Positions 18,036-51,734 are shown, counted from the first letter of the whole stretch. The stretch is DNA of 51,734 nucleotides, filler included, from Jimgerdemannia flammicorona (GCA_003990765.1; 2 parts of 2 records of this genome joined end to end with filler, not necessarily neighbours in it), one strand, 5' to 3'. The notes: generated from the letters alone by a model not told the origin. Numbers and translations: made by a program.

Positions 18036-18091
18036 ATTAGTAGTAGATATTTTATCTAGCTATTACAGAAGGTAGGGCTCATTGCTCCAAT

Positions 18092-25594: not shown

Positions 25595-25625
25595 GTTGGG
25601 GACTCTTCTACAATATCTATTCAAT

Positions 25626-25817: not shown

Positions 25818-25917
25818 NNNNNNNNNNNNNNNNNNNNNNNNNNNNNNNNNNNNNNNNNNNNTTAATTAATTAANNNNNNNNNNNNNNNNNNNNNNNNNNN
25901 NNNNNNNNNNNNNNNNN
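25818..25917. other. Assembly gap with artificial six-frame stop linker
   Basis: N-run, TTAATTAATTAA (25862-25873), N-run; 100 bp in total. Confidence 0.97.
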
Positions 25918-28960: not shown

Positions 28961-29075
28961 GCTACTTTCTGAGAAAATGGACCTTACCAGACTTTTGACC
29001 TCCCAAATGGTGTAACAACACTAGAACAAATTAAAAGGCCCCGACGAGGACGTCAAAAGCTAAGAAGGGGAGAGT

Positions 29076-31136: not shown

Positions 31137-31264
31137 GTAGCAGAGAAAGAAGCTGGAAGCTATACATATATATATTTATACATATGCTATATCAACATCA
31201 ACTTTAACAGATCAGTTATAAGTATTTTCTAATACTGGTGATACTTTAAGTTAGACTTATTTTT

Positions 31265-33230: not shown

Positions 33231-33244
33231 GAGTTAGAGTTAGG
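33231..33244 (+). repeat. Decayed telomeric-repeat junction (GAGTTAGAGTTAGG)
   Basis: G>A-mutated GGGTTAGGGTTAGG directly before the CTTCAAG terminus of T1. Confidence 0.75.
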
Positions 33245-36200
33245 CTTCAAGTAAGAATTTATTCATTGTAGAGAAGATAAGATATATCAGAGCAACAAAC
33301 AGCAAAGACTCCTAAGATGAGAAAAGCAAAAAAAGGCCAGTGAAGTAAACAATTAGCTAAGAAGTACAAACAAAGACCAGAGAGGTGACCACCCTATAGA
33401 CAGGCTGGATAAAACCATTTTATCATGGCTGTAGAGATAATAAATGCAAAAAAGCAAAGAAGAGAGAAACTAAATAAGATACACAAATGCCCAGTGCCAA
33501 CTATAGGAACATATCAACATCCAAACACCAAGTGACTAATATGAGATAAATAACTCAAAGTACTCTCAACAATGAGAGAACCAACTAAGGTGAAGGAGAA
33601 GAAAGAAAGAAATAAAAAAAATGTGCAATTACTCGATCACCCAAGTATCTTCATAATCTCAGTTAGGCAGAACCCAACTGCAAGGTGGCCACCAGAATTA
33701 TACATAGCATCAATAGCATGGTAGGCTTTCTTGTGAAGAGCATATAGAGGGTAGGCATAAAGTTCTTCCTGCTATTCATTACTGATAAACCAATTGAGTT
33801 ATTCATCATAATCAGAATTATCTTGGAAAGTGGAATAGGAACCATTGAGAAGACCGCACCTGAGGAGATGTTCACAATGAAACTTATCTCTACAGGGGCA
33901 GGGGCGGGGTTGGCCAAAGTAGCCATAATACCAGGTAAGTGCAGAGCACACAAATCAGAGGAGGAAGAAGAGGATATGATCAGTGCCCTGTGACCACAAG
34001 TGGCCTTTGGGAGTAATATACTGAATAAGCACCTGGGAGGAGAAAGTCAATTCCTGCAACAGCTGGTTTCAGAGGAATAACTGGAGGAAGGAGTAGAGCA
34101 AGTGGGTCTTGCAGACCTAGAGATGAAGGTCTTAGTACCAGTCAAGGAAGTTAAGACAAGAGGTCCAATGCCAGAACTTATCAATGATAGAACCCAGGGG
34201 ATATGTGACAAAGTGCTCAGTGAGAGAGCTGATGGGGTTGTTGCCAGACTTGCTACACTAATCCAGATGGGCTTAGAATATATAGCAGAGGTCCAACATG
34301 TGACGAAGGAAGGAGGGGAGGCCAAGAATTGAACTGCCAAGCAAGAGATGGCCAGAAAATCTGACTGCCCAAGCAACAGCATCATCAAAGACCTGCTCAG
34401 GATGCTTAAATACCTGAAGCTCCATAGTAGTAACTGGGCAGGAAGCTTGTAGAAGAAGAAGGCCATACTCTAGCTGAGGCCTAATGAATGTCCATATAAT
34501 GGCCGACTTGACCATTGGCGACCAGAGAGGACTGCAGACATGGCAGAACCCAAGAGTTTGTTCTATCTTTACTGCATTCTATAACACAAGGCTGACAAAG
34601 TCAAACCCTTTATTAATATACAACATACCTAGGTATATGTAAGAGTAGGGTTACAGGCAGAGCTTGTCTCCAATCTGCACAGTACAATTGGCTGGGTCAA
34701 TACAACTGCACTTCTTGGGATTGAGTTCCATACTGTTTGCCAAAAGCCAGTCCTCACAAAAGCCAATCATCCTTTGCCCCTTGCAGCAGTGCAGGGGGTG
34801 AGAGCAATATCATCAGCATAGAAGAGCCTGAGGGGGAAGTCATACTCCTTGAACTGCTCATCAAAGGAGATGGTGAGGAGGTCAATGAAGACATCAAAGA
34901 GCCAGAGGGAGAAGAGAGAGCCTTGGAAGAGACCACGCTCAGTGGGGACCAATGGGGTGATGAGGCCATTAACAACTACCTGATAAGAACAGTGATTGAA
35001 GAGGCTACAAATAATACTAAGGAGGGCTACATCAGCTCCTCATACCTCAAGTTGAGAAAGAATGAGCTTGAGGGGGACTCTATCATATACCTGCCAGAGG
35101 TCAAGAAAGACACGGTAGCCCCACTCCTTGGCCCATGTCTTGTGCAAAAGCAAGATATAGGAGAGGGATGAGAAGTAGGTTCAGAAGCCACCTTGGCAGT
35201 ATGATATTTCTGTCAGGCCACTTCGGCTCTTGATGTATCCTTCCAAACACTACTCAAAGAGTCTACAAAACATTTCAGTAAGAGCAATAGTGCGAAAACC
35301 ATCAATTGTACAAGATTACTCCTTCTTGGGAACTAGGGTAATAATGGCAGTATTCTAGTAGCGAGGAGTGAGCCCTCAGACCATGCACATCGGGAAGAAG
35401 AATGACAAGACTTTGGAGAGGTCACAGGGAGTATTCTTTTTGCCCGCCATCACCTAAAGGATCTGAACATACAAAGAGTCAGCCCCACAGGTCTTCGAAA
35501 GAAGGTAGCTGTAGATAGCTCTCCAAACTATAGGCTGGTCAAACCAAGCCTGTAGCCCAAGAGCATTCACACTAAAGGAGAAGACATCCTTGGAGTCATC
35601 AAGGTGGAGGGAGGCATTTGGTTGGCCAAAGATAGTGGTAAAATGTACAACCACATCATCAAACACCAAGACAGCAGGGGAGTGAGATTGAAGGGGTGCA
35701 GAGGGTGTGGAGTAGTATGCTTGCTTAAAACTATAAATGGCATCAGAGACCATAGATATACTGTGAAGAAGGTCCCACCAGGGGAGTAGCACTGCTCTGA
35801 TTTCTATTGCATCATATGAGCCAAGAATATTCTCACAAACTGACAATAGACCAGAGGTCAAAAGAGCATCGAGAGAATCCACAAACTGCTGGCAATCTTC
35901 CACAGAGTGAAAGCCAGAGATGTGGTCTCGAATAAAGTAGATAGACCTGACAACAGTATTGTAAATGATATCTGCTAATTCTCGAAGATGGGCTTGGATA
36001 ACCAGATTGGTCAGATATCTCACAGAGTAATAACAGATGTCAGTCAAGGCAGCAACTGGTAAGGGAGAGAAGGAGAAGAAGACAGTGAGGAGGGAGGGGT
36101 GGTCAGTAGTGATAAGAGGGGTGGAGCAGATAAGGGATGCGTAGAGGGATGTGGTGGTGAATGCATAATCAATGTGTATCCAGCCACCAGGGTCAGATGG

Positions 36201-37891
36201 TTCAATGACCATGTCATCAAGGAGATGTTGATGACATCAATCTGATCTCTAGGACTAGAGTTGACATCACCAAGACAGGCACCGAAGTGGGTGTTGATGT
36301 TACCGATTAGGAGGGTCTTTCCCAGGAAGAGACCAGACTCAATATCACAGAAGCTACCAATAGGAAGAGAGAGGGGGGCATAAACTCCAACCAAAGCCAA
36401 GCCCTGGAACATAAGCTGGATATAGAAGGGATCGGTGGAGGACTTGGAAATAAGGGGGGCAAAATGGTTTAACACAAAGACCATGGGACCACTATTCTGG
36501 TGACTTATGATCCTATATAATGCTGGAGGAGAGGACATGTAAATGAGCAGAGAGGGATATAGCAGAATGTGCCATATTTCACATATATAAAGAATGTCGA
36601 GGGCAGGACCAATCAACTGACTGAGCATATTGAACTTGTCCTAGGGTAGTCTGTGTGCATTCTGGAACCCAACTCTCATTGTGGGCTAGGTGTGTTAGCA
36701 CCAACAGCATGGGAAGTATCTGAGGAGGAAGCTTTGGCTTCCAGATCCATTGCCATCTCACCAGTCATGGCTACAATACCACCTGCCTTTGAAGCAGGGC
36801 CAGCCGACAGGGAGGTGAAGGAGGGGAGAGTTAGGCCAAGTTCCACAGCCCAAGCTCAGTAGAAGGTCTGCATCTCAGGCCTCTTTGCAGTGGCATCACC
36901 AGCCAACTGTCAGACCCGAGCATAGAAAGATCAGAGTACGTGTCTTCACAGCCTCTATTGTGTTCTTGTTGTGGGGGAGTGCAGGGTCTCAGATTGAGAG
37001 CATTGAGAACCTGAGCATCTTCATCTTCTTTTGGAATGCCATGATATAATCAGGGTAGAGATGGAATTCTATGGTTGACACCGAGATGTATGACATGTTG
37101 AGAACTTTTAAAAACATTATATAGATATCATACAAGTTCTTTCAGATCTGCCTGATCTTAAGATGGGCAAATCTGTCAATGTAAACATGCTATAGCTGAG
37201 CACCTCTCTCAGTCAGTGACAAATGAGAGGTTGGCTTGCAGATAATGTGAGAAAGGGCAGCAGTAGCAGCTGCCCTTTCTGTCTTGGGGTAGGCCTGGGT
37301 CCTATCCTTGATAGAGACCTTCTTTTCAGTGGTGACATATGATTTGGGGGGGGCAGGAGTTGAAGCAGGGGATGGAGATGGACTAGCAGTACTGGGTTCT
37401 ACAGGTATAGCCTGGGGTAATGGCCCAAGGGCCTTGGCCTTGCCCTTTTTAGAGAGTACAGCTTTAGTAGCTGGAGGTACTGATGTGAGAGTTGCCTCCT
37501 TTAGTGGCACACTAGACTGTGATGAGGCAGCTTTAGCAGCCTGCTTATCCACTCGCTTCTGGGCCTTCAACCATATGTTTACAGCAGGACCAGTAAGAGG
37601 GGGGGCCAAGGACTTAGTGGGGGTAGATGTGGAAGAGGCAGTGGGGGTACCTCCAGAAGGAGCACCAGATGATGAGGGGGTGGTGGGTGCAGACTGCACA
37701 GCAAGCTGTGCCATCAGCTGGGCATTGATCTTGACCAGTTTGGCCACTTGAGTTGGCAGATCCAATCTCCGCTTCCTCATCACAGCTATCTCCATGACCA
37801 GATCAGAGTTGGCTGAGGGGCCTGCATGACTGGTAGTCAGGGTCATATACATACTAGTGTTTAGGTGACCATGTTTGTTCTAATTGAGGAA
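33245..37891 (-). mobile_element. Telomere-repeat-joined APE LINE, copy T1 (5' truncated in ORF1)
   Basis: VGVYAP, GNINT, IDYAF, TDH (APE); QGSLFSLWLFDVFID, FYADD (RT); CPC..H..C C-terminus. Confidence 0.9.
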
Positions 37892-37902
37892 TTAGGGTTA
37901 GG
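37892..37902 (+). repeat. Telomeric-repeat junction TTAGGGTTAGG (T1/T2)
   Basis: Seen directly; followed by CTTCAAG. Confidence 0.88.
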
Positions 37903-40207
37903 CTTCAAGTAAGGGTTTTATTCATTATAGAGAAGATAAGATACATCAGAACAACAAATAGCAAAGACTCCTAAGATGAGAAAAGCAAAACAAGGCCAGT
38001 GAAGTAGACACCTAGCTAAGAAGTACAAAATAAAGGCCAGAGAGGTGATCACCCTATAGATGGGCTGGATAAAACCATTTTGTCAGGGCCATCAAGATAA
38101 TAAATGTGAAAAAGCAAAGAAGAGAGAAACTAAAATAAAATATACAAATACTCAGTACTAACTATAGGAAGAATATCGATACCCAAACACCAAGAAACTA
38201 ATATGAGATAAATAACTCAATACACTCTCAACAATAAGAGAACCAACTGAGGTGAATAAGAGAAAAGAAGAAAATAAAGAAAATGTATAATCACTCAATT
38301 ACCCAAGCATCTTCATAATCTCAGTCAGGTAGAACCTGACCACAAGGTGGCCACCAGAATTATACATAGCATCAATAGCATAGTAGGCTGTCTCGTAAAG
38401 AGTTTGAAGAGGGTAGGCATAAAGTTCTCCTGCCATTTGTCATTGGTAAACCAATCAAGCTGTTCAGCATGATCAGGAACATCTCAGAAAGCAGAGTATG
38501 AACTATTGAGAAGACCGCACCTGAGTAGATGACCATGATGAAACTTATCTCCATAGAGGCAAGGGCAGAGTTGGCCAAAATAGCCATAATGCTAGGTAAG
38601 CGCAGAATGTACAAGTCAGGGGGGGAAGGAAAGGATATGGTCAGTACCTCTTGACTGTATGCGGCCTTTGGGGGTAATGTACCAAATGAGAACCTGGAAG
38701 AAAGAGGCCCATTCCTGGAGCAGCTGATTCTGAAGGAATGACTGAAGGAAGAAGCAGAGTAAGTGAGTCTTGCCAACCTAGAGACAAAGGTTCCAGTACC
38801 AGTAGAGGAAGTCAAGCCAAGAGGTCCAATACAAAACTTGTCAATAATAGAACCCAGGGGATACATGACAAAGCGCTCGCTAAGGAGACTGATGGGGTTA
38901 TTGTCAACTTGCTATACTAATCCAGGTGGGCTTAAAACATGCAGCAGAGGTCCGACATACAATAATGGAAGGAAGAGAGGCTGAGAATTGAACTGCCAAG
39001 CAGGAGATAGCTAGAAAATCTAACCACTCAAGCAACAGTATCATCAAAGATCTGCTCAGGATACTTCATCACCTGAAGCCCTGTAGTGGTTGCTAGGCAG
39101 GAGACTCATCGAAGGGAGAGGCCATACTCCAGCTAAGGACTGATGAAAGTACATATAATGGCCAGCTTGACCATTGGTGATCAGAGAGGACTACAAGCAT
39201 GGTAGAACCCAAGAGTACATTCTGCTTTTGCTACATTCTGCAATACAAGATCAACAAAGTCGAACCCTTTGTTAGTGTATAGTATACCTAGGTATACAAA
39301 GGAGGAGGGTTGTGGGTAGGGCTCACCACCAATCTGCACAGTACAGTCAGTAGGGCCAATATAACTGCACTTCTTGGGGTTGAGTTCTATGTCATTTACT
39401 AAGAGCTAATCCTCACAGTAGTCAATCATCCTCTGCCCTTCTACAGTAGTATAGGGAGTGAGAGTGTTATTGTCTGTGAAGAAGAGCCTGAGGGGGAAGT
39501 CATACTCCTTAAACTGTTCATCAAAGGAGATAGCAAGGGGATTGATAAAGACATCAAAGAGCTAGGGGGAGAGAAGAGAGCCCTGAAAAAGACTGTGCTC
39601 AGTAGGGACCAAAGGAGTGATGAGGCCATTAACAACTACTTAGTAAGAACAGTAAGTCATAAAAGAATGAGCCTGAGGGGGACTCTGTCATAAGCCTGCC
39701 AGGACATGGCAGCTCTATCTCTTAGCCCAAGTCTCATGTGAAAGCAAGATATGGGAAAGAGATGAGAAGTGGGTTCAGAAGTCACCTTGGCAGTGCAACA
39801 TTTCTGTCAGGCTACTTCAGCTCTTGACGTAACCTTCCAAATACTACTCGAAGAGTCTATGAAATATTTCGGTAAGAGCAATAGGACGAAATCTATTAAT
39901 TGTTTGTGATTCCTCCTTCTTAGGAACTAGAGTAATGATGATGGAGTTCCAGTAGCAGGAAGTGAGCCCACAAACCATACATATCTAGAAGAAAAAGAAC
40001 AGGGCTTTGGATAGGCTACAGGGGGTATCCTTTTTGCCTGCTATCACCTGAAGGACCCAGACATATAAGGAGTCAGCTCTACAGGCCTTTGAGAGAAGGT
40101 AGCTATGGATAGCTCTCCAAACTGTAGGTTGATCAAACTATGACTGCAGTCCAAGAGCTCACACACTGAGGGGGAAGACAGGCCTGGGGGCCTTGGCTTT
40201 GCTCTTT
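37903..40207 (-). mobile_element. Telomere-repeat-joined APE LINE, copy T2 (internally deleted, 5' truncated)
   Basis: Colinear with T1 33245-35587, then ~30 bp matching the ORF1 KKGKAK region. Confidence 0.88.
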
Positions 40208-40226
40208 TTAGGGTTAGGGTTAGGGT
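40208..40226 (+). repeat. (TTAGGG)3 junction between T2 and the Penelope-like element
   Basis: TTAGGGTTAGGGTTAGGGT seen directly. Confidence 0.93.
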
Positions 40227-40526
40227 GAAGATTGTGAGGTTTAAGCAAAGATTTATGAAAGAAATCAACAGAGTCGAGCAATAGCTATGTTAGATCATAG
40301 AAATCTTTGAACATCTCTTGTCAGACTTGCTATTGCTTAAATACCTTTCACTTGTCCGCTTTGGACTTAGTAATTGATTATTGTTTACACAATGTAATAC
40401 GAAATTAATTATGAATGAGAGTGAATTACTTCTCAGATTTCACAATCAGGTAGCTTTGATCCACTGATCAAATCACATTTTTCTTTTAAGATTAGGGTCG
40501 GGCATGTGCTACCGATTAGAATAAAA
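40217..40526 (-). repeat. PLE 3' direct repeat (pLTR)
   Basis: Aligns by eye with 43437-43791; the latter has an extra AT-rich insert. Confidence 0.9.
40277..40337 (-). ncRNA. Hammerhead ribozyme, mutated copy
   Basis: Core reads CTGACAA..CAAA; stem I AGCAATAGC/GCTATTGCT is intact. Confidence 0.6.
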
Positions 40527-40590
40527 CACACATTGTACAGTACAGGAAAAGGAAAGATACAGTGTGACATTTTATGACCAGTCATGTTTA

Positions 40591-42340
40591 TTATAGGGGT
40601 GATTTGCCTGCTATTGATAGCATCTTCTTGTTCTGCTTCTCAATTAGCTTCTTTAAGTTGAGACCATGATAAATAACTGGGCTGTACTTTACAAGACAGT
40701 GTTGAGACAGAGTATTCATCACTCTGGCAGCCAAAGATAGTGCACAATGATGGTAATAATTACCAGAATAATTGTGCATATGGTGTAACATTTATCTTAC
40801 CGAGCTTAGGGCCAGACTCTTCATTATTCGCACGAGAATCCTCCGAAAGCATATGGGAGCAGTCTTGATAAGATTCAAAACTCAAAAGATAAGCGATCTG
40901 ATTTGGTTTGAAGGTACATTGTACCAAAAACTGACAGAATTCAGAAATTGCTACTTCATAATTGTCATACTCTGATGAGTTCTGAATAAGGCAAGTATTC
41001 TCACCTCTAAGCCATCCATCAATATATGCTTGTGGATAATACATATCTGGCATAGAGTAAATATGAAGATTTATATCTTTATCATAGTTTCGGAACTGAA
41101 TTGACCGAGTCTTATCAGCTTTGAGCTTCACATATACTTTAAGATTGCAAAATATAACTTTGTCAGCTATATGTTGTGTGAAGTACAAACTAGAGCTCAT
41201 TGTTATAACATGTTTTGCAGCTTCATCGCCCTTATCCATAATGATAATGATGTCATCGATGAATCAGAAGTAAAGTTCCGGTAGAATCCCTTGATCATCA
41301 AGCCTTAGTTCATAAAAAGCCATAAAGAGATTTGCTACATTGGGTGCCAAAGGCATGCCCATTGCAATTCCTTGAATCTGTTGATAGATATGTCTGACGT
41401 ATTGAACAAATGCAAACTTAATCACAAAGTGCAATATCTTTATTTAATATCTGTAGATATGTTCTTTAGAGTAATCAAATCACATAAGAACTACAAATAT
41501 TTTCCATAGACACTCATCGATGTTAATGTTGGTATATATTGACTCAATGTCCGCTGCTAGTAATGTTACAGATCCAGAAAAAAACTTTCCTTCAACATGA
41601 TTAATTACATATTTGGAGTCGGAAGCTACCATTCGACACATAGAGATATATGGTTTCCAATAGGCATCTACAGCTCTCAAAGCATCGCTGGTAATCCAGC
41701 AGTGGTTCAGAGAGATAGGTCTTGACTTAACAGGATTTTTATAAAGTTTCGGTAAAATATAGAATTCTGGAATCTTACATTTCACAAGGGAAGCTTGCCA
41801 TGACTTCACCTGTTTGAGGGCCGAATGCGAGACATTTTTGTCAAGCTTTTTGGCTTCATCAATCAATAACATGAGAGATGTATTCGTCTCAGTAGAATTG
41901 AAAGATTTCTCAACAAACATTGACATGTCAGTGAGGTGACCCAACACTTGTGAGTTGTACCAGTCATAATCCATAAGTGTAAGACCAAGTCCTTTATCAG
42001 TTTTACAAACAATAAGGCAATTATTTCGCATAAAGTCATGTAGATGTTTGATGGTATGCAAGTAGCAGTTATGAGGATTTATTTTATTTGCTTTGCCAAA
42101 ATGGCGTACAAAATTACTCTCCACAACATGAAGACCAAAATCAGCTCGAGTAGTTAAGCCTTTGTCCCAGCCTTATTCTTTTGCCCCCACAAGGACTTCT
42201 TGACAGACAGATCACCAGCTTTGGCAGGCCTGTTCAATATCAAGACAAGTGTGAAAATTGAAGTTAAGATCTTTGTTTAACAGATCAATAATGTCACTTG
42301 GAATTTTGGAGATATGAGAAATATTATTCACAAAAACATT
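40591..42340 (-). pseudogene. Penelope-like reverse transcriptase
   Basis: VNNIS..LLNKDLNF, KTDKGLG, FYILPKLYK..RPI, DSKYVI, ADIESIYTNI, QIQGIAMG.PLAPNVANLFM, YF*FIDD, YDKDINLHIY..GWLRGE thumb region. Confidence 0.92.
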
Positions 42341-43336
42341 CTTATTGGAAATGTTATGGAAATGTACTGTTTCCCATCTTTTGAACCAGACTTCTCTGAT
42401 CCTCCTTTGCCTTTGGTCATAGTGTTTTTTGTCTTCTTCGGCAAGCCCTTTTTCAGGATCAGCTTCTTGTATAGCACAGCTGTTGCCGATACTTTTGATT
42501 TGGCCTTCCCCTTCACAGGGCCCATTACCTTTGGCTTATTCATCAGCTTTGCATTTTCCTTTATCTAAAGACAAGGGAACATGAGTATCAAGCCAGATAG
42601 AAAGTAATTTGATTGGCTTGAAAGCCTCATCAATGGGGACATACAGTGTAGTCACTCTTACTTTTTTCTCTGGGGCCAAAACAGCCTCAACATACATGTT
42701 GTGCAATTTGTTAGCAAATTCGCTAACAGTATACTCTAGGTATACTTTGGCAAGCTGATCATGCCTATCGTCCTCATGGAATACCAATAGCTTAGGTTCT
42801 AATTCTCCCCAAAGAGAGGTGACCAGGCTATTGAGTTCAGAGTCACACTCCTTCTAAACTTGTTATTTAGATGTAATGATAGCCACCTTAACTTCTAAGG
42901 CGATAACGTCATAGATATGCTTAATGGATCCCTTGGGAAGAGAGACATTTTTAACCAAGAAGTCATAATATTTTCCAGGGTCTTTCTTCTCTGCTGCCAC
43001 TGCAAGGTGAACTGCTTTCTTACAGCAATCAATCAAGATTACTGCCCATGCTGCATAGTGTTTGACATAGTCGACCAGGGGCAGTTCTTTTATCAGAACT
43101 GTGGAGGAGCCTTGACCACCAAAGGTTGGAGGGATGGGGACCACAAATGGGGTACTCTTGGGTGGTAGTCTATGAAATTCCTCATGAACCGCAGTATGAA
43201 CCATGGCTATTTCCTCAGCATACATCTCAGCATCTTCAACAATATCGTCGAGAGAAGCAAACTGAAGTACCAATTGGGCCACACAAGATAGACCTTCTGG
43301 CATATCAGAATTGATGCTAGGAGCATAAGACCTCAT
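42341..43336 (-). pseudogene. PLE upstream coding region (ORF1-like), unknown function
   Basis: The 212-aa and 83-aa ORFs share a frame broken by point stops; probable start MRSYAPS at 43336. Confidence 0.6.
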
Positions 43337-43436
43337 TGCTTGCTGTTGAGCAAGCAGGGTGGAGGTGAGGTCAGAGTGAGAGTTATTATCATTCGATATA
43401 TCATAAAGATAAGTTTTTTTATAAAAAGGTAATGAG

Positions 43437-43791
43437 GGGTTAGGGTGAAGATTGTGAGGTTTAAGCAAAGATTTGTGCAAGAAATTGACAGAGTCGAGCA
43501 ATAGCCATGTTAGATCACAGAAATCTTTCGAACATCTCTCATCAGACTTGCTATTACTTAAATATCTTTCACTTGTCTACTTCAGACTTAGTAATTAGTT
43601 ACTGTTTACACAATGTAATACAAAATTAATCATGAATAAGAGTGAATTACTTCTTGGGTTTCACAATTGGGTAGCTTTGATCTACTAATTAAATCATATT
43701 AAAATAAAATTTTAATTAAATTATAATTATATTACTGAGCAATTTTTCTTTTAAGATTAGAGTCAGGTGCATGCTACCGATTGGAATAAAA
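43437..43791 (-). repeat. PLE 5' direct repeat (pLTR)
   Basis: Direct repeat of 40217-40526 beginning GGGTTAGGGTGAAGATTGTGAGG. Confidence 0.9.
43497..43558 (-). ncRNA. Type I hammerhead ribozyme
   Basis: Minus strand: AATAGCAAGT CTGATGA GAGATGTTC GAAA GAT TTCTGTG ATC TA ACATGGCTATT. Intact core, short stem II, stem III, CUA cleavage triplet, stem I. Confidence 0.8.
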
Positions 43792-43830
43792 TTGTAATTG
43801 TATTACTGAGCAAATTTTCTTTTAAGATGA

Positions 43831-43850
43831 GGGTTAGGGTTAGGGTTAGG
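43831..43850 (+). repeat. Telomeric-repeat junction GGG(TTAGGG)2TTAGG (PLE/T3)
   Basis: Seen directly; followed by CTTCAAG. Confidence 0.93.
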
Positions 43851-44243
43851 CTTCAAGTAAGAATTTATTCATTGTAGAGAAGATAAGATACATCAGAGCA
43901 ACAAATGGCAAAGACTCCTAAGATAAGAAAAGCAAAACAAGGCCAGTGAAATAAATAACTAGCTAAGAAGTACAAAACAAAGGTCAGAGAGGTGACCACC
44001 CTGTGGACAGGCTGGATAAATCATTTTGTCATAGCCATAAAGATAATAAATGCGGAAAGCAAAGAAAAGAAATACTGAGATAAAATATGCATTCACCTGG
44101 TGCTAACTACAGAAACCATATTGATACCTGAACTCTAAATGACTAACGTGAGATGAATAACTCAATGCACTCTCAACAACAGGGGAATCAACCAAGGCGA
44201 ATGAGGGGAAGGAAAGATATAAAGAAAATGTGTGATCACTCAA

Positions 44244-47200
44244 TCACCCAAGCATCTTCGTAATCTCGGTCAGGCAAAACCTGACCACAAGGTGGCTACC
44301 AGAATTATACATAGCATCAATAGCATAGTAGGCTGTCTCGTAAAGAGTGTGAAGAGGGTAGGCACAAAGCTCTTTCTACCATTCATCACTAGTAAACCAA
44401 TCAAGTTATGCATCACAAACAGAAGTACCTCAGAATGCAGAATATGAACCGTCGAGAAGACCACATCTGAGAAGATGGCCACAATGAAACTTATCTCCAC
44501 AGGGATAGGAGTGGGGTTGACTAAAGTAGCCATAGTGCCAGGCAAGTGCAGAGTGCACAAGCTGGGGGAGAAAGGAGAGGACACGATTGGTACTCTGTGA
44601 CTACAAGTGGCCTTTGGGGGTAATGTACCAAATGAGAGCCTGAGAGGAGGAGGCCTATTTCTGCAATAGCGGATCCCAGAGAAATGACTGAAGGAAGGAG
44701 CAGAGTGGGTGAGTCATGCATTCTTGGGGACAAAGGTCCCAGTACAAGTCAAGGAAGTCAAGCCAAGAGGTCCAACACTGGAACTTGTCAATGATAGAAC
44801 CCAGGAGACACATAACAAAGTGCTCGCTAAGGGGGCTGATGGGGTTGTTGCCAGACTTGCTACACTAATCTAGATGGGCTTGTAACATGCAGCAGAGGTC
44901 CAACATATAGTGGAGAAAGGAGGAGAGGCCAAGAATCAAACTGCCAAGCAAGGGTTGGCTGGAAAATCCAACTGCTCAGGCGACAGTGTCATCAAAGACC
45001 TGCTTGGGACACTTCAACACCTGAAGCCCTATAGTAGTAGCTGGGCAGGAGGCTCATAGAAGGGGAAGACCATATTCCAGCTGTGGCCTAATAAATGTCC
45101 ATACAATACCCAGCTTGACCATTGGTGACCAGAGGGGTCCATGTGCATGGCAGAACCCAAGAGTTCATTCTGCCTTTGCCACATTCTGCAATGTGAGGCT
45201 GACAAAGTCAAACCCTTTATTGGTGTATGGCACTCCCAGGTATACATAAGAGGGGGCTCGCAGGCAGGGCTCACCCCCAATTTGTACAGTACAGTCAGCT
45301 GGGCCGATATAACCCTTCTTGGGGTTGAGTTCCATACCATTTACCAGAAGTCAGTCCTCGCAGAAGTCAATTATCCTCTGCCCCTCCGTGGTAGTGTGGG
45401 GGGTGAGGGTGATATTATCAGCAAAGAAGTGCCTGAGGGGGAAGTTATACTCCTTGAATTGTTCATCAAAGAAGGTAGCAAGGGGATCAATAAAGACATT
45501 AAAGTGCCAGGGGGAGAGAAGGGAGCCTTGGAAGAGGCCACACTCAGTGGGGACCGAAGGGATAACAAGAGCATTAACAATCACCTAATAGGAATAGTGA
45601 TTGAACAGGCTTCAAATAATGCTAAGGAGGGCTGCATCAGCTCCTCATGCCTCAAGTCGAGAAAGAATGAGCTTGAGGGGGACTTGGTCATATGCCTGCC
45701 AGAGGCCAAGAAAGACACAGTGGCCCTACCCCTTGGCTCATACATATCTCATGCAAGAGCAAGACATAGGAGAGAGATGAGAAGCAAGTTCGGAAGCCAT
45801 CTTGGTAGTGAGATATTTTAGTCAAGCTACTTTAGCTCTTGACATAACCTTCCAAACAACATTTGAAGAGTCTATGAAACATTTCGGTGAGAGTGATAGG
45901 GCAAAAACCATTGATGGTCTGGGATTCCTCCTTCTTAGGAACTGGGGTAATGATAGCAGAGTTCAGCAGCATGGGGTGAGCCCCCAAACCATGCATATCT
46001 GGAAGAAGAATGACAAGGCCTTCGAAAGGCTGCAAGGGGCATCCTTCTCACCTGCCATCACCTGAAGGATCCTGATGTACAAGGAGTCAACTTCACAGGT
46101 CTTAGAGAGGGGATAGATGTGGATGACCCTCCTAACTACAGGTTGGTCAAACCAACACTATAGCCCAAGAGCCCCCATGCTGAGAGAGAAGACATCCTCA
46201 GAGTCATCAAGGCGGAGGGAGGTATCAGGCTGGCCGAAGATAGTGGTGAAATGATCAACCACATTGTCAAACACCAAAACAGCAGGGGAGTGAGACTGGA
46301 GAGGAGCAGGAGGGGTGGAGTGGTATGCACACTTGAAACCACAGATAGCATCAGAGACCAAGGATACACTGCGAAGAAGGCCCTGCCATGGGAGCAGCAC
46401 TGCCCTGATCTCTTGTGTGTCATACAAGCCAAGAATATCCTCACAAACTGACTATAGACCAGAGGTCAAAAGAGCATTGAGAGAATCCACAAACTGCTGG
46501 CGATCCTCCACAGAGTGGAAGCCAGAGATGTGATTTTGAATAGAATAGATAGACCTGACAATGGTATCGCAAATGATATCTGCTGATTTCCAAAGGTGGG
46601 CTTGAATGACCAGATCGGTCAGGTATTTTGCAGAGTAATGGCGGATACTAGCCAGGGCAGCAACTGGCAAGGAGGAGAAGGGGAAGGAGATGGTGAGGAG
46701 GGAGGTGTGGTCAGTTGTGACAGGGGGAGTGGTACATGTGAGGGATGTATGGAGGGATGGAGTGGCAAATACATGATCAACATACATAGAACCAGCCACC
46801 GGGGTGAGGTGGTTCAATGATCATATCATCAGGGAGTTGTCGACGACATCTATCTGATCCTGAGGACCAGAGTTGATATCACCTAAGTGGTCACTGAAGT
46901 GAGTATTGATATCACTGATCAAAAGAACCTTACCTGGGAAAAGGCCAGATACAAGATCACGGAAACCACCAATGGGAAGAGAGGGAGAGGCATAAACCCC
47001 AATCAAAGCCAGGCCCTGGAACATGAGCTGGATATAGAAGGGGTCAGCGGAGGACCCAGAAATGAGGGGCGCGAAACAGTTTGACACAAGGACCATGAGA
47101 CCACCATTCTGGTGACCCATGATCCTGTGCAATACTGGAGGAGAGGACATGTGAATGAGCAGAGAGGGATGCAGTAGTATGTGCTACATTTCACATATGA

Positions 47201-47291
47201 AAAGAATGTCGAGGGTAGGACCAATCAACTGACTGAGTATATCAAACTTGTCCTGGAGTAGTCTGTGTGCATTGAGGAACCTGACTCTCAT
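44244..47291 (-). pseudogene. T3 ORF2: APE endonuclease, RT, C-terminal Cys/His motif (~1016 codons)
   Basis: MRVxFLNAHxL..DILFICE, GVYA, DIN, VDH, TDH; PVPKK..PITL, QGSLLSP, FFADN (FYADD in T1), YLG. Stop position conserved in all four copies. Confidence 0.9.
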
Positions 47292-48787
47292 TAGGGGCTG
47301 GGCATGTTAGTACCAATAGTGTGGGAAGCACCTGAGGAGGAAGCTTCGGCTTCCAAATCCATTACCATCTCACCAGTCATGGCCACAGTACCACCTGCCT
47401 TTGAAGCAGGGCCGGCCGATGGAGAGATGGAGGAGGGGAGAGTGAGGCCAAGTTCTGCGGCCCATGTCCTGTAGAAGGTCTATACCTCAGGCCTTCTTGC
47501 AGTAGCATCACCAGCCAACTGCTGGACCTGAGCATGGAATGATTGGAGTACTCATGTCTTCACGGCCTCTGTAGCATTCTTGTTGCATGGGAGAGTAGGG
47601 TCCCAGGCCAACAGCACTGAGAACCCAAGCACCTTCATCTTCTTTTGGAATGCTGTAACATAATCAGAGCAGAGAAGGAATTCGATGATTGATGCCGAGA
47701 CATACAACATTTTGAGAATCTTTGACAATATTACATGGATATCATAGAGGTTCTTCCGGATCTGCTTGATCTTAAGATGAGCAAATCCATCGATATAAAC
47801 ATACTGCAGCTGAGCGCCCTTCTCAGTCAGCAACAAATGAGAGGTCGGCTTGTGGGTCATGTGTGAAAGGGTGGCAGTGGCGGCTGCCCTTTCTGTCTCG
47901 GGGTAGACCTGAGTCCTATCCTTGATAGAAACCTTCTTGGTGGCAGTGGCATATGATTTGGGGGGGGTGGGGGTCAAAGCAGGGGATGAAGACAGACTGG
48001 CGGCACTGGGTCCCACAGGTGTAACCTGGGGCACTGGCTTGGAAACCTTGGCCTTACCCTTTTTAGGTGGCATGGCTTTGGTGGCCAGAGACATGGCCAT
48101 GGGAGTTACCACCTTTGGTAGTGCACCAGACTGTGATGCAGCAGCTTTAGCAGCCTGCTTGTCTGCTCGCTTCTGCACCTTCGACCACGTATTCATAGCA
48201 GGGCCAGTAGGAGGGGTGGCCGAGGACTTGAGAGGAGCAGATATAGAAGGGGTGGTGGGGGTACTTCCTGTAGGAGCACCAGATGATGAGGGGGAGGTGG
48301 GCACAGATTGTGCAGCAAGCTGTACCATCAGCTGGGTATTGATTTTGGCCAGATCAGCCACTTGAGTCAGCAGATCTGAGATCTGCTTCCTCATCACAGC
48401 CATCTCTGAGACCAAATCGGGGTCAGCTGAGGGGCCCACATGACCAGCTGTTGGGGTCATTCCCAAACTAGTGTTCGGACAACCACACTTGTTTCGGTTG
48501 AGGGGCAGAGGTATGGGAGAGAAGGACAGGCATTGGGCATCATAGTTTGAATCAGAAGAGATCATGATCTCTTTGTCATCTTCTGTATCGCGCAAGGAAG
48601 ATAAATATACCAATATCAGTCATGCATCCCTGCACAACCTGCACATTGCCATAAGACTACCCTCACTGAAGCTGAGGGAGAAGAGACTGATGCTGCAACA
48701 TTCAGCGCAGTGGAGTGATGCACCAAAGTGCGTGAAGAGATAGGTGGCATTGCCGTCATCACCAATGACAGTGGAGGTGGCTGACAT
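47288..48787 (-). pseudogene. T3 ORF1 (~500 codons): CxxC-x19-CxxC, coiled coil, P/S/T/A/K-rich linker, conserved C-terminal domain
   Basis: The 81-aa and 353-aa ORFs and their continuation lie in one frame broken by point stops; homologous to T1 37190-37852. Confidence 0.75.
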
Positions 48788-48889
48788 TGCTGAAATAGGT
48801 GAAGGTGTATTTGTTTGTATTTGTGAAATTGTGAAATGTGGCTCACATGACCTTTGTTTGTGCAATGAAAAAATAATGGAGAAGGGGGG

Positions 48890-48897
48890 TATTTATA
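48890..48897 (-). promoter_or_regulatory. TATA box upstream of T3 ORF1
   Basis: Minus strand GGTATAAATACCCCCC ~100 bp before the ORF1 ATG. Confidence 0.5.
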
Positions 48898-49000
48898 CCT
48901 GATGAGAGGCTTAGCTAATCAAAGTGACTGCTTTCTTGATTTGGAATAGCTTCAGGCCATAAAGCCAAGTCTAGCCAAATGGAAAAATCATATGAGTGGC

Positions 49001-49010
49001 TTGGGTTAGG
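49001..49010 (+). repeat. Telomeric-like junction TTGGGTTAGG (T3/T4)
   Basis: Directly before the CTTCAAG terminus of T4. Confidence 0.8.
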
Positions 49011-50597
49011 CTTCAAGAAAGAATTTATTCATTGTAGAGAAGATAAGATTCATTGGAGCAGGGAATGGCAAAGACTTCTAAGATGAGAAAAGCAAAACAA
49101 GACCAGCAAAGTAAACAACTAGCTAAGAAGAACAAAACAAAGGCCAGAGAGGTAACCACCCTATGGATGGGCTGGATATAACCATTTAATCATGGCCATA
49201 AAGATAATGATGCAAAAGCAAAGAAAGAAGAGCTAAATAAAAATACATGTTCACTCGGTGCCAACGACATGAACTGTATCATCAACTAAACACCAAATGG
49301 CTGACATGAGATGAATAACTCAATATGCTCTCAACAACAAGGGAACCAACTAAGGCGAATGAGGGAAAAGAAGGAAGTAAAGAAAATGTGTGATTACTCG
49401 ATCACCCAAGTATCTTCATAATCTTGGTCAGGCAGAACCCGACCACGAGGTGGCCACCAGAATTACACATGGTGTCGATAACATGATAGGCTATCTCGTA
49501 AAGAGCGTGAAGAGGATAGGCATAAAGTTCCTCCTGCCATTCGTTACTGGTAAACTAATTAAGTTATTCATCTTGATTGGAAGTACCTTAGAATATAGAA
49601 TATGAACCATCGAGAAGACCACACCTGAGGAGATGGCCATAATGAAACTTATCTCCACAGAGGCAGGGGTAGGGTTGGCCAAAGTAGCTATAATGTCAGG
49701 TGAGGGCAGAATGCACAAGCTGGGGGGGGGAAGGAGAGGACGCAGTCGGCTCCCTGCAACCGCAAGCGGCCTTTGGGGGTGATATACCAAATAAGAGCCT
49801 GGGAAGAGGAGGCCCATTCCTGCAGCAGCTGATCTCGAAGGAAGGACTGAAGGAAGGAGTGGAGCAGGTGAGTCTTGCAGACCTGGGGATGAAGGTCCCA
49901 GTACTAGTCAAGAAAGTCAAGCCAGGAGGTCCAATGCCAGAACTTGTCAATAATAGAACCTAGAGGACATGTGACAAAGCGCTTGCTAAGGGAGCTAATG
50001 GGGTTGTTGCCGGACTTACTACACCAATCCAGATTGGCTTGGAATATGCAGCAGAGGTCAGATATACAACAGAGGAAGGAAGGGAGGCTGAGAATCGCAC
50101 TACCAAGTAAGGGATGGCTGGAAAATCTGAGCACCCAAGCAACAGCATCATCAAAGACCTGCTTGGAGTGCTTTAATACCTGAAGCCCCATGGTGCTCAC
50201 TGGGCAGGATGATCATAGAAGGGGAAGGCCATACTGCAGCTGAGGTCTGATGAATGTTCCTACAATGGCCAACTTGACCATTGGCAACCAGAGGGGACTA
50301 CAGGCACAGCAGAATTCAAGAGTATGGTCTGCCTTTGCCGCATTCTGCAATACAAGGCTGACAAAGTCAAACCCTTTGTTGGTATATGGCACACCCAGGT
50401 ATACATAGAAGGGGGGTCGCAAGCAAAGTTCACCCCCAATCTGCACAGTATAGTCAGCAGGGCCAACATAACTGCACTTCTTGGAGTTGAGCTCTATACC
50501 ATTCGCCAGAAGCCAATCTTCACAAAAGTCAATCATCCTCTACCCTTCTACTGCAGTGCGGGGGGTGAGGGTGATATTGTCAGTGAAGAAGAGCCTG
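49011..50597 (-). mobile_element. Telomere-repeat-joined APE LINE, copy T4 (ends within RT)
   Basis: Colinear with T3 43851-45435; similarity stops just before the FxDD region. Confidence 0.9.
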
Positions 50598-51734
50598 CAG
50601 CTCCTTTCTCCACTATCTTATCAGTCACAAGGTTTGGTAGGTGATCTTCCAAGTCCCCTTTCCCCTAATATTACCCTCTCTACCTCAGGTTAGTTTGCTG
50701 TGCCTGCAGGAGCATGGTGGGAGGAGGGCAATGGTGATGAGTTGCCCCTTTATCAGTGTCAGATCGGTACTTCCTCCATTTTTTCACGGATTCTATTGCC
50801 TTCGGCTGCATCTGAGGTATACCCGTTTTGGTGTGGTGCCTTCTTCCTTTTGCCATCGCCAACAAGGAGTTTTCTCGGTGTGTCTCGGGCTATGTAGGGA
50901 GTCGGCCAACCTTGGGCATTAAGTGCTCAGTGTAGGTTATCTGCAGGTCCTCGGTATCTGTTGTTGGGCCCTCTGGCTTTGGCGAGCTTCCTGGCGAGCA
51001 TGGTTCTGGTATAGGTAACTGCTTTTCAGGTGTTGTCAAGATGGGAGGGGAGATGGCCATCACAGATAGGTGGAAGGGCGATTACGGTGAACCAGTAGGG
51101 TGCCAGGCTGGGGGCGGTCATCGGGGCTGGGGCAGGCGCTGCTTCGGTGGGGCCTTTTGATTGGTGCAGCATGGTTAGATGGTAGGTGTCACTATCGGCT
51201 TCTTTTGGTGGTCAGCAGGGTTGGGCCCCAGTCATCAGGTGGGGTCAGGAGGCCTGAGGCTACCCATTTCAGGCGTCTTGGCTGCACTAAACTGGAACTG
51301 AGAGCTGACATGGCAACGTGATCGAGGCCCACAGGCTAGAGTAGTGGGGTATTGGGGGTTTCCTCCCACCTCATGTGTAAGTCCTTTACTCACCTCAACT
51401 GGGAGAACTAGGCCCTACCCACCATGTTGTACTTTGATGAGCATTTTTTATTTGCCTGTCATTCTCTTTGGTGTGACAGGGGCTATTCTATTTGGCTTGG
51501 GTGTGGCCTTGTACATAGGTTGGGTTCTCAGGCATGTGCTTTCGGTCGTTGGTGTATGGTTGGGTTTCCCCTGGTGGTAGGGAGAGCATGGTGCACAGAA
51601 TGAGGTGCAGGCTTATCAGCCCTGCTGCATCTAGCATGGTTGAGCTGCTGGACAATAGCTAGCCTAGGTTAATGGGGGGGCAGTGCTTGGTGGGTGGTGG
51701 GGGAGGGTTTTGGCCTATATAGTCTAGGTTCCCT
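50598..51734. other. Unclassified GC-richer segment, possibly another mobile element
   Basis: Abrupt junction with T4. Decayed minus-strand frame MLARKLAKARGPNNRYRG.. with stops explicable as CGA/CAA>TGA/TAA; no recognised domain. Confidence 0.35.

Follow-up and report, generated by a model that had tools for sequence, protein, structure and literature searches.

TRAS1 and SART1 (R1 clade; Bombyx, Tribolium, aphid) are APE-type LINEs that occupy a single, constant position within the telomeric repeat and keep one polarity to its G and C strands. The LINE described here resembles them in these respects, and its polarity is that of TRAS. However, the insect elements target TTAGG, carry poly(A) tails and lie inside long repeat arrays, whereas the present LINE is without poly(A), adjoins tracts of just 8-22 nt and has named relatives that are fungal. 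For TRAS/SART, a portion of PMC7265360 describes that a telomere-like 3' sequence of the RNA pairs with the nicked target and thereby sets the start of reverse transcription. An earlier reading of this DNA from the sequence alone (the sequence-only reading) had assigned the known telomere-specific APE LINEs to insects. This holds for TRAS/SART, but an excerpt of PMC10088271 also lists Tx1-1_ACar (Tx1 clade, green anole), an APE-type LINE, as specific for a telomeric repeat, in this case of the vertebrate type. Tx1-1_ACar, compared here by description alone, differs in being a vertebrate element of a Tx1/L1-like group.

In Drosophila, chromosome ends carry the APE-lineage LINEs HeT-A, TART and TAHRE, arrayed head to tail and with the 3' ends toward the centromere; TART and TAHRE retain an EN domain. 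These elements belong to the Jockey clade, have poly(A) junctions and inhabit a host without telomerase repeats, unlike the present chain, in which telomerase-type repeats lie between the elements. MoTeR1/2, Cnl1 and FoTeR carry telomere-like variant repeats at their 5' end and differ from the present LINE in clustering with CRE/SLACS. Their fungal hosts, their integration at TTAGGG telomeres and their chains at chromosome ends are points of likeness, but according to sections of PMC12857005 they consist of a single ORF in which the RT is followed by a C-terminal restriction-like PD-(D/E)xK endonuclease, the type that the sequence-only reading had rightly stated for MoTeR and Cnl1.

Athena/Coprina elements, as portrayed in parts of PMC8557442, PMC4522978 and PMC13159263, resemble the present case in the short reverse-complement telomeric repeats (one to three units) at their 3' end, in a 3' end that faces away from the chromosome end and in their head-to-tail chains. 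Passages of PMC8557442 have endonuclease-less Penelope-like elements attach to G-rich telomeric overhangs via these reverse-complement repeats, and in Zymoseptoria, according to an excerpt of PMC4522978, the 3' end of Penelope-like elements bears 1-3 TTAGGG and is directed away from the telomere. The present chain itself holds a probable member. Athena/Coprina elements nevertheless differ in their telomerase-related RT class, the lack of an endonuclease, their hammerhead ribozymes and their terminal direct repeats, whereas the present LINE has a conserved APE, two ORFs and an L1-like layout of EN and RT; only the 3' telomeric tract is common to both.

LINE copies and their 3' junctions

We analysed one stretch of DNA of 51,734 nucleotides (the window), which consists of two contigs with an N/TTAATTAATTAA linker at 25818-25917. 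All LINE copies, delimited by blastn and tblastn, come from one locus of it:

33231-33244, plus strand: degenerate G-strand tract GAGTTAGAGTTAGG at the copy A 3' junction
33245-37888, minus strand: LINE copy A, 5'-truncated, ~4.64 kb
37892-37902, plus strand: tract TTAGGGTTAGG between the copy A 5' end and the copy B 3' end
37903-40180, minus strand: LINE copy B, 5'-truncated inside ORF2, ~2.3 kb (2.28 kb)
43829-43850, plus strand: 22-nt G-strand tract GAGGGTTAGGGTTAGGGTTAGG at the copy C 3' junction
43851-49002, minus strand: LINE copy C, 5152 nt, the longest copy
43851-44246, minus strand: copy C 3' UTR, with the sense AATAAA at 43869-43864, 13 nt before the junction
49003-49010, plus strand: tract GGGTTAGG between the copy C 5' end and the copy D 3' end
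49011-50597, minus strand: LINE copy D, 5'-truncated, ~1.6 kb (1.59 kb)

The sequence-only reading had placed the element at 43831-49010. Copy C is found there, but its body spans 43851-49002, while 43829-43850 is its own tract and 49003-49010 is that of copy D. With 43831-49010 as blastn query against the window, three copies besides copy C were recovered, all in identical orientation: copy A (33230-37861, 79.6% over 4646 nt), copy B (37892-40180, 77.7% over 2363 nt) and copy D (49003-50597, 80.8% over 1600 nt). The 3' end is common to all four copies, their 5' truncation points differ, LTRs are absent, and copy C is the sole full-length copy in the window. The copies are ~20% divergent with a transition to transversion ratio of ~6, CpG decay and many stops; as judged from their sequence, all four are dead.

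Every copy ends in AATAAA-N13/14-CTTGAAG, followed directly by 8-22 nt of CCCTAA-type repeat, and the phase GTTAGG/CTTCAAG (the slash marks the junction) is constant in 4/4 copies. Accordingly, the 13-mer GTTAGGCTTCAAG occurs exactly four times in the window (33239, 37897, 43845 and 49005), once per copy 3' end. The sense 3' ends read AATAAATTCTTACTTGAAG/CCTAACTCTAACTC in copy A, AATAAAACCCTTACTTGAAG/CCTAACCCTAA in copy B, AATAAATTCTTACTTGAAG/CCTAACCCTAACCCTAACCCTC in copy C and AATAAATTCTTTCTTGAAG/CCTAACCC in copy D; in each of them the true boundary is G/CC, one base off the written split. No poly(A) or A-run follows the telomeric tract at any of the four junctions. The signal, the ~13 nt up to CTTGAAG, the CCTAAC-type repeat in an unchanging phase and its place in lieu of poly(A) had all been reported by the sequence-only reading and were seen again in each copy. 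Within the scope of these searches, we found no supported RNA structure in the copy C 3' UTR and no ribozyme match in Rfam for the LINE. Copy C has TTAGGG-type repeat on both flanks, where two Gs could be a 2-nt target-site duplication but might equally reflect the repeat phase or an additional G at the 5' end.

With at most one mismatch, TTAGGGTTAGGG has six matches compared with 0.28 expected, a number reached in 0/100 shuffles. On the plus strand, base composition predicts 2.7 occurrences of GGTTAGG; there are eight, every one at an element junction, and CCTAACC in the opposite orientation is at chance level (2 vs 2.6 expected). Still, the tracts are very short, in contrast to the long arrays that flank TRAS/SART, which weighs against a telomere-targeting reading.

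Beyond the tract of copy A lies an AT-rich block, beyond that of copy B the 5'-truncated end of copy A, beyond that of copy C the 5' region of a Penelope-like element and beyond that of copy D the 5' end of copy C. The differing flanks together with the differing 5' truncation points therefore indicate four separate LINE integrations and rule out one duplicated block as the source of the four copies. An artefact, i.e. repeat misassembly or tandem duplication of one element with its flank, is highly improbable. The assembly is admittedly fragmented, with short contigs joined by the linker, but collapsed or duplicated assemblies yield near-identical units, whereas these copies show ~20% difference, four lengths, four tract lengths and differences in both flanks, and similar junctions exist in unrelated contigs (L001 and L002, see below).

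Coding regions and protein family

The coding parts of the two longest copies are as follows:

36899-37888, minus strand: copy A ORF1 remnant
33640-36694, minus strand: copy A ORF2 remnant
47555-48619, minus strand: copy C ORF1, 355 codons open, with a predicted coiled-coil-like stretch, a low-complexity stretch and a C-terminal domain
44247-47306, minus strand: copy C ORF2 remnant in several frames (tblastn), C-terminal Cys/His motif included
~46622-47306, minus strand: copy C APE region
44247-46796, minus strand: copy C linker and RT

No Pfam family matched the copy C ORF1. ORF2 was followed by reading through stops (copy A: 8 in the 495 codons of P0001 and 4 in the 226 of P0003; copy C: 12 in the 466 of P0002). 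RVT_1 was matched in read-through copies with E-values of 7e-8 and ~2e-7 (P0002: 2.4e-7), compared with 1e-24 to 1e-31 in intact relatives. One of these relatives, P0004, aligned to copy A with a BLASTP E-value of 1e-75 and to P0002 with 2e-37. The APE residues, which the sequence-only reading had held to be recoverable, could be traced in the alignment of copy A (stops read through) with P0004: QNAHRL/FNARGL, ICEIW/ISETW, GVYAPLS/ACYFPPS, IGNINTH/LGDINTR, HIDYAF/RVDHAF and TTDHPS/STDHPL. The aspartate of GDxN is mutated to N in copy A and kept in copy C (ISDINTH). The APE piece of copy A matched the family profile with an hhalign probability of 98.9% (E 3e-17), and the RT lies downstream of this N-terminal endonuclease. 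The family profile in turn aligned with EN and RT of human L1 ORF2p (positions 3-726, E 3e-52) and with L1 EN chains alone (positions 3-208, E ~1e-8); among its PDB matches at E<=1, L1 EN is present and TRAS1/R1 EN structures are not. On these protein comparisons the element is an APE-type LINE, as had been claimed, and not one of the restriction-like-endonuclease type. Membership in the MoTeR/Cnl1/FoTeR group was rejected: the N-terminal APE aligned to L1 ORF2p from residue 3, and the C-terminus holds just CxxC...H...C.

The decayed copies align to a large family of intact ORF2 proteins of ~1000 amino acids, which comprises at least 797 clusters and was covered at the DNA level for 3 lineages. 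In its members an N-terminal APE, with conserved catalytic residues (N, E, Y, D-x-N, D and D-H), precedes the RT, and a Cys/His motif (CxxC...H...C) lies at the C-terminus. Among 33 intact members there is no variation at E36, Y106, D131, N133 and H207; at least 90% keep N10 and D206, and in RxDH the D prevails but falls short of 90%. This pattern marks the family endonuclease as a domain under constraint. All named relatives are fungal (Tilletia, Sporobolomyces, Calcarisporiella), which agrees with the fungal nature put forward before. Tad1, the commonest fungal LINE clade, has an RNase H domain after the RT. In nine family members scanned, no RNase H Pfam match was obtained; PF00075 is present in more distant matches.

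Among 79 metagenome loci kept, only two are close relatives, the metagenome contigs L001 and L002 (E 1e-132 and 8e-151; next 2e-34), with 32-35% identity. The window element, L001 and L002 fall into three different subclades of the family clade (SH-aLRT 99 for that clade; 63-row tree). Both contigs show an AATAAA-type signal, N10-13 and a short CCCTAA-like tract, so that the telomere-like 3' end recurs in 2/2 relatives with readable 3' DNA. Past the L001 tract, a second family member is arranged head to tail with the first and is represented by its 5' UTR, ORF1 and APE. However, the tracts (CCTAAATAACCCTAAAGG in L001, CCCCCCTAACCCTAA in L002) are imperfect, which weighs against a telomere-targeting reading. 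In L080, a more distant relative, TTAGGGTTAGGG has the opposite orientation (G-strand) and A9 comes after it.

A head-to-tail chain with Penelope-like neighbours

Two Penelope-like 3' ends, with TTAGGG junctions like those of the LINE, lie between copies B and C:

40208-40225, plus strand: (TTAGGG)3, 18 nt, at the Penelope-like 3' junction
40226-43436, minus strand: Penelope-like retroelement, frame 40643-43576 with 9 stops (read-through P0093)
43437-43446, plus strand: tract GGGGTTAGGG, 10 nt, at the second Penelope-like 3' end
43447-43828, minus strand: second, short Penelope-like 3' fragment

Neither the Penelope-like element nor the chain figured in the sequence-only reading. The two ends share a 264-bp direct repeat (43437-43700 corresponds to 40217-40479 at 88.6%). 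P0093 matched RVT_1 at E 1.2e-5, and ADKG, FYILPKxHK..RPI, DIxSxYTNI, GTAMG..AP..AN and FIDDI are common to it and four relatives. These include Penelope-type RT motifs (DKG/DKN, KxHK..RPI, DxxSxYTNI), named in part after passages of PMC13159263. No GIY-YIG-like segment was seen by eye in the read-through, and in this decayed copy Rfam gave no hammerhead ribozyme match at E<=1. The element is probably of the endonuclease-less Coprina type.

The locus as a whole is a six-element head-to-tail chain in the order A-B-PLE-PLE-C-D (PLE, Penelope-like element), and all six elements share one polarity relative to the G strand. At copies B, C and D, the tract runs exactly up to the 5' end of the element before it (copy A, the Penelope-like fragment and copy C, respectively). 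Copy B is not a nested insertion into copy A, as the missing 5' part of A is absent beyond B. The ~27 nt of unexplained sequence that separate the copy B 5' end from the next tract weigh against a telomere-targeting reading. The Penelope-like element and the chain are the strongest evidence here for telomere targeting as opposed to a merely telomere-like tail.

Such a tail could belong to an ordinary dispersed LINE without telomere preference, whose RT made a CCCTAA-like microsatellite from its own RNA end, the local chain being TE-rich DNA with nested insertions. LINEs in which (TAA)n or similar short simple repeats replace poly(A) are known in several lineages, the tracts are short and variable in length, dispersed LINEs likewise have a conserved endonuclease, and L080 demonstrates that the wider group includes telomere-like 3' motifs of both polarities. 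Random nesting, however, does not predict the exact abutment of 3/4 tracts on a retroelement 5' terminus of the same polarity with no 'host' remainder on the far side. Moreover, the chain holds a Penelope-like element with TTAGGG junctions of its own, a head-to-tail join of this kind is present in L001, an unrelated sample, and the tail matches the repeat that the Penelope-like element carries, which in published cases, as far as a section of PMC4522978 reports, is the telomere repeat of the host. We regard a dispersed LINE as improbable.

Proposed integration at TTAGGG tracts

The reading that we favour, with moderate confidence, takes the four copies as fossils: a fungal non-LTR retrotransposon of the APE type would have integrated at TTAGGG tracts by the mechanism proposed below. 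These targets would have been chromosome-end repeats and the short tracts that earlier arrivals had left at their 3' ends. The findings suggest a previously undescribed fungal LINE lineage that lands on chromosome-end repeats, for which the sequence-only reading had proposed a possible independent origin of telomere targeting. Its transcript may be cut slightly downstream of AAUAAA, retaining one to few CCCUAA units from its own tract. These units would anneal to a G strand whose 3' end is ...TTAGG. The paired end would prime reverse transcription, and with G-strand priming the GTTAGG/CTTCAAG phase would therefore stay constant and poly(A) would not be copied. The 3'-OH most likely stems from nicking of the G strand by the LINE's own APE endonuclease; a natural or eroded end would be an alternative source. 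cDNA synthesis may often stop early, which would give the 5' truncations. A new TTAGGG tract, either the remaining target tract or telomerase-added repeats, would then bound the 5' end and receive the next element. In this way elements would line up head to tail, each with its 3' end directed away from what would once have been the chromosome end.

A member of the same LINE family could also have integrated without an endonuclease. As has been proposed for Athena/Coprina, and as in the Drosophila HeT-A/TART end additions, the CCCUAA end of its RNA would pair with a single-stranded G overhang at a chromosome end that had eroded or had just been healed. Every new 5' end would receive a few telomerase-made repeats ahead of the next arrival, and the array would be the fossil of a chromosome end that grew stepwise from A, its oldest element, to D. 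In favour of this unlikely but plausible course, the LINE tracts (8-22 nt) are as short as the 10 and 18 nt of their Penelope-like neighbours in the chain, and all six elements have one polarity to the G strand. The Penelope-like neighbour shows no endonuclease, and the published model, in the portions of PMC8557442, PMC13159263 and PMC4522978 that set it out, needs a free end. The tract registers at the preceding 5' ends differ (GAGGAA/TTAGGG, AAGAT/GAGGG, GGCTT/GGG), as expected for de novo addition. On the other hand, the 5' end of copy D adjoins non-telomeric sequence without TTAGGG, which speaks against this course and also weighs against a telomere-targeting reading in general. In a family that numbers hundreds of clusters, the 33 intact members show (nearly) invariant APE catalytic residues; the endonuclease is therefore used at some point of the life cycle.

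LINE copies and their telomeric 3' junctions

The sequence-only reading had described 43831-49010 as an APE-endonuclease LINE in which telomeric repeat replaces poly(A) at the 3' end. A blastn search with this interval found three further copies in the window in the same orientation, the sense strand of the element being the minus strand, and an all-against-all comparison agreed. The interval therefore holds one copy of a repeat (C), the body of which is shorter than had been proposed, at 43851-49002.

Elements of the array; LINE percentages are from blastn with 43831-49010
33230-37861, minus strand: LINE copy A, 79.6% over 4646 nt
37892-40180, minus strand: LINE copy B, 77.7% over 2363 nt
40226-43436, minus strand: Penelope-like 1, decayed, TTAGGG repeats ahead on the plus strand
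43447-43828, minus strand: Penelope-like 2, short 3' fragment, TTAGGG-type repeat ahead on the plus strand
43851-49002, minus strand: LINE copy C (body)
49003-50597, minus strand: LINE copy D, 80.8% over 1600 nt

Copies A to D share a common 3' end and stop at a different point at the 5' end, as LINE retrotransposition typically leaves them. On the sense strand each finishes with AATAAA, 13 nt (14 in B) ending in CTTGAAG, and a CCTAAC-type tract of 14 nt in A, 11 in B, 22 in C and 8 in D, and no A-run follows the tract at any of the four 3' ends. The exact 13-mer GTTAGGCTTCAAG occurs four times, once at each copy. These observations bear out the proposed four-copy telomeric junction as real and above chance; telomere-type words in the window are far more numerous than chance would give, and strand-specific. 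Beyond the tracts lie an AT-rich block (A), the truncated 5' end of A (B), the 5' region of another element (C) and the 5' end of C (D). Since these sequences are unrelated to one another, the four copies represent separate events. The 5' end of D itself joins ordinary sequence, which we count against a telomeric reading. A stretch of about 27 nt (40181-40207), GC-rich and then T-rich, separates the truncated 5' end of B from the (TTAGGG)3 that follows. It matches neither the LINE nor the repeat, may represent untemplated nucleotides or sequence captured at the 5' junction, and likewise counts against that reading.

No conserved 3' RNA structure was supported by RNAalifold, which gave a weak fold (-14.8 kcal/mol) for the last ~160 nt of the four copies, with compensatory change in 0 of 35 pairs. 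Rfam returned no match over 32500-51734 at E≤1, so that neither a hammerhead, including at the Penelope-like element, nor another ribozyme was found at any element end.

All LINE copies are dead. Stop codons number 8 in 495 codons of copy A and 12 in 466 of copy C, in addition to several frame changes. Pairwise divergence is about 20% with a transition to transversion ratio of about 6:1; A and C differ at 950 of 4651 sites, 814 of these being transitions. At CpG sites 356 of 712 C (50%) and 291 of 710 G (41%) are changed, compared with 11-23% in other contexts, and CpG observed/expected is 0.21 over the whole window. RIP was considered as the cause of decay and rejected, because the excess of changes sits at CpG and is better fitted by deamination of methylated CpG. 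In a consensus with CpG-type transitions undone, built for mapping only, ORF1 was restored over 369 codons and ORF2 was recovered in four long pieces (227, 286, 111 and 467 codons). From it we read the layout: a 5' UTR is followed by ORF1, then by ORF2 with endonuclease, linker, RT and Cys/His motif, and a 3' UTR some 400 nt long closes the element. When stop-free pieces were compared with Pfam one by one, only a single weak RVT_1 match came back, and domain detection needed translations reading across stops.

Endonuclease type and relatives of the LINE

The read-through of copy A is 37% identical to P0004, an intact ORF2-protein relative of 1022 aa, over 96% of the query. By segment, P0004 matches the N-terminal piece of A at E 1e-8, linker and RT of A at 1e-75, and RT and beyond of C at 2e-37; against the family profile, the N-terminal piece of A reaches an hhalign probability of 98.9% (E 3e-17). 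For the P0004 family a word-indexed search found 84 proteins and an exhaustive search 797 clusters at E≤1e-30, the best 150 of which all score ≤1e-87 and are mostly collinear across ~1000 residues; the family has at least 797 clusters at 50% identity. Those of its members that carry a name come from fungi only, namely several Tilletia species, Sporobolomyces ruberrimus and Calcarisporiella thermophila, and fall in Ustilaginomycotina, Pucciniomycotina and Mucoromycota.

In 33 aligned intact members there is no variation at E36, Y106, D131, N133 or H207, and N10 and D206 are kept in 90% or more; RT motifs are conserved as well, and a CxxC...H...C motif lies at the C terminus. The claim that APE residues are recoverable held: the window copies show the family endonuclease motifs, one aspartate being lost in A and retained in C. 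The match of the family profile to human L1 ORF2p starts at the first residues and extends across the RT (E 3e-52), and the L1 endonuclease domain taken alone is matched at E ~1e-8; the solved TRAS1 and R1 endonucleases gave no match at E≤1, and no RNase H domain was present in the 9 family members scanned. Judged by these protein comparisons, the element is an APE-type LINE of a fungal family and not of the restriction-like-endonuclease type.

With the family alignment, viral contigs yielded no relative, and prokaryotic genome contigs yielded no close family member either, only four contigs that bear distant LINEs. Metagenome contigs contained 387 LINE-like stretches, of which the best 80, representing 79 loci, were kept. 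Among these best 80, close membership of the family is limited to L001 (E 1e-132) and L002 (E 8e-151), and the score drops to 2e-34 at the third locus. Both include the 3' end, which reads ...AAATAAACACTCTTAA, then CCCCCCTAACCCTAA, then unrelated sequence in L002, and ...AAATAAGACCTTAAAG, then CCTAAATAACCCTAAAGG in L001. About 250 nt past its tract, L001 carries a new ORF1 and an ORF2, the first 254 residues of which match the family endonuclease (probability 100%, E 3e-51), so that L001, too, shows a head-to-tail pair. Of the 79 loci, two contain the exact 12-mer CCCTAACCCTAA: L002 in sense and L052, unrelated, in antisense. ORF1 of the window element, L001 and L002 gave nothing credible in Pfam.

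A tree of 63 rows and 683 columns (HMM-guided alignment, quick IQ-TREE search, SH-aLRT support only) was built from 47 hand-picked family proteins, 4 named proteins, 7 distant outgroup hits, two window read-throughs, L001, L002 and the more distant locus L080. The family clade has a support of 99. The two window copies pair with each other (99) and weakly with Calcarisporiella (85), L001 pairs with P0022 (100), and L002 stands beside P0025 inside another clade (99). In 3 of the 3 family lineages for which DNA could be read, an AATAAA-type signal is thus followed after 10-13 nt by a short telomere-like tract; three is few for a family of at least 797 clusters. L080, at 27% identity, is sister to the family at 98 on a long branch. 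It holds two head-to-tail LINE copies joined by AATAAA-N13-TTAGGGTTAGGG-A9 (regions of note 1-620 and 7050-7585); at this joint the telomere-like motif has the reverse polarity compared to the window family and is accompanied by poly(A). It is filed under a bacterial MAG, yet carries a eukaryote-type LINE (ORF1 552 aa, ORF2 1636 aa), with TAGGGTTAGG near the contig end; in the genome behind it, only this contig's element was found.

A head-to-tail chain with Penelope-like elements

In order, A, B, Penelope-like 1, Penelope-like 2, C and D form a six-element chain with a single polarity, each joined via a short G-strand tract to the 5' end of its left-hand neighbour, and GGTTAGG on the plus strand is found at chain joins in 8 of 8 cases in the window. 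B is not nested in A, since blastn and the all-against-all comparison of the window found no remainder of A to the right of B.

The second retroelement, between B and C on the same strand as the LINEs, has a single frame (40643-43576) with 9 stops and a weak RT match. Aligned with its four detectable relatives it shows ADKG, FYILPKxHK..RPI, DIxSxYTNI, GTAMG..AP..AN and FIDDI, a set which we take to be Penelope-like. The DKN and RT motif set of such elements is also named in PMC13159263. No GIY-YIG segment was seen by eye in this frame. On the plus strand, (TTAGGG)3 stands before the 3' end of Penelope-like 1 at 40226, and Penelope-like 2 presents the same 3' end again from 43447, after GGGGTTAGGG (plus strand); a direct repeat of 264 bp with 88.6% identity links 40217-40479 and 43437-43700. 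The element at 40226-43436 is probably of the endonuclease-less Coprina/Athena type. Athena and Coprina are relatives of telomerase. According to published work, Coprina/Athena-type elements reside at the very chromosome ends amid telomeric repeats (PMC13159263), reverse-complement telomeric repeats at the 3' end of endonuclease-less Penelope-like elements serve attachment to G-rich overhangs (PMC8557442), and the 3' end of such elements faces away from the telomere and bears one to three TTAGGG units (PMC4522978). Penelope-like 1 and 2 show the 3' arrangement published for this type. The read-through of the Penelope-like element had only a marginal match in the PDB, to a group-II-intron-like RT (phmmer, E 0.03), and a stop-free piece led, as a lead only, to DUF8422 clusters in the protein atlas; PF28514 and PF26215 are mentioned in no paper searched.

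Each tract in the chain abuts the exact 5' end of the preceding element, and the chain includes an element type reported to need free ends. Both observations argue for targeting of TTAGGG tracts at chromosome ends, and against a dispersed element that has a telomere-like tail. We lean, by a little, towards targeted integration at these tracts in which the endonuclease participates. The primer for cDNA synthesis would be a G-strand 3' end that closes with ...TTAGG, the template an RNA with ...CUUGAAG as the last templated bases of its body; the fixed junction phase would follow from this, and C-strand units on the RNA would pair with the G strand and so set the start of reverse transcription. 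The AATAAA 13 nt upstream would put the predicted cleavage within the first repeat units or directly behind them, and a transcript read into the adjacent tract would therefore carry such units; if poly(A) were added later, it would sit past the paired primer and escape copying. Alternatively, the LINE could be added by end priming alone, through attachment to eroded or newly healed ends. The LINE tracts are very short and equal in length to that of the Penelope-like neighbour, as such attachment would predict, but the invariant endonuclease residues suggest that the enzyme is used, and we regard this route as unlikely. If the endonuclease takes part in targeted integration, its invariant residues favour a nick in the G strand.

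Comparison with known elements and genomic surroundings

Telomere-targeted retroelements such as Drosophila HeT-A/TART and insect TRAS/SART tie transposons to chromosome-end maintenance. The window LINE resembles TRAS/SART and, by report, Tx1-1_ACar, which are APE LINEs specific for telomeric repeats, and TRAS1 nicks the same G strand as proposed here. The window LINE lacks the poly(A) of TRAS/SART, and its 3' end is like that of Athena/Coprina. It is not a member of the MoTeR/Cnl1/FoTeR group, the endonuclease type having been tested and found to differ. In a 2023 survey the telomeric LINEs listed belong to four clades, and MoTeR1 is the only entry from a fungus (PMC10088271); FoTeR was added in 2025 as a second restriction-like family (PMC12857005), and the subtelomeric 'non-LTR' elements of Zymoseptoria are putatively Penelope-like according to their authors (PMC4522978). 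Hebe of Adineta is subtelomeric, but poly(A) is present (PMC2861651). In the full-text papers searched, no fungal LINE of the APE type is described as having a telomeric 3' tract, and their fungal telomere cases are only restriction-like MoTeR/Cnl1/FoTeR and endonuclease-less Penelope-like elements; Repbase Reports, supplements and subscription journals lay outside this search, and a prior database entry is possible.

The original interpretation thus stands in part, as an APE-type LINE with a telomeric 3' end, and is strengthened by the chain and the relatives. A fungal APE lineage of this kind would be a further convergent case, combining a conserved endonuclease with the 3'-repeat device of endonuclease-less elements, and it would let one ask whether the common trick is G-strand pairing rather than endonuclease specificity. 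More tentatively, and with doubts prevailing, the whole of this large, old fungal clade may be specialised for chromosome ends, its RNAs ending in C-strand repeats that pair with the G strand, much like a telomerase template, and building composite chromosome ends together with Coprina and telomerase. This would represent a telomerase-positive counterpart of Drosophila HeT-A/TART. It would also be the third route by which telomere targeting arose independently in fungi, the first two being those of the MoTeR group, with a restriction-like endonuclease, and of the Penelope-like elements that have none. In practical terms, such elements would flag present or former chromosome ends in fragmented fungal assemblies.

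The window consists of two contigs artificially joined, as seen from the six-frame stop linker TTAATTAATTAA between two runs of 44 N at 25818-25917, and the LINE array sits on the second contig (25918-51734). Directly proximal to the first chain element lies a 2-kb block with 23% G+C (31150-33230). A Ty3/gypsy chromovirus pol at 25918-28650 (plus strand), cut by the contig start, has RT, RNase H, integrase zinc finger and core, SH3_Tf2-1 and chromodomain; related sequence is found at 29023-31136 and at 813-2905, the latter a 2.1-kb repeat of its downstream part with 89% identity. Three to four diverged (~65%) copies of another retroelement-like repeat occupy 2913-6505, 9150-14755 and 15363-25815. 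The pieces of it that were tried had no Pfam match. This repeat has a very strong GC skew of about 0.4-0.5, G-rich on the long-ORF strand, and one piece shows GDFN...SDHW-like endonuclease motifs by eye.
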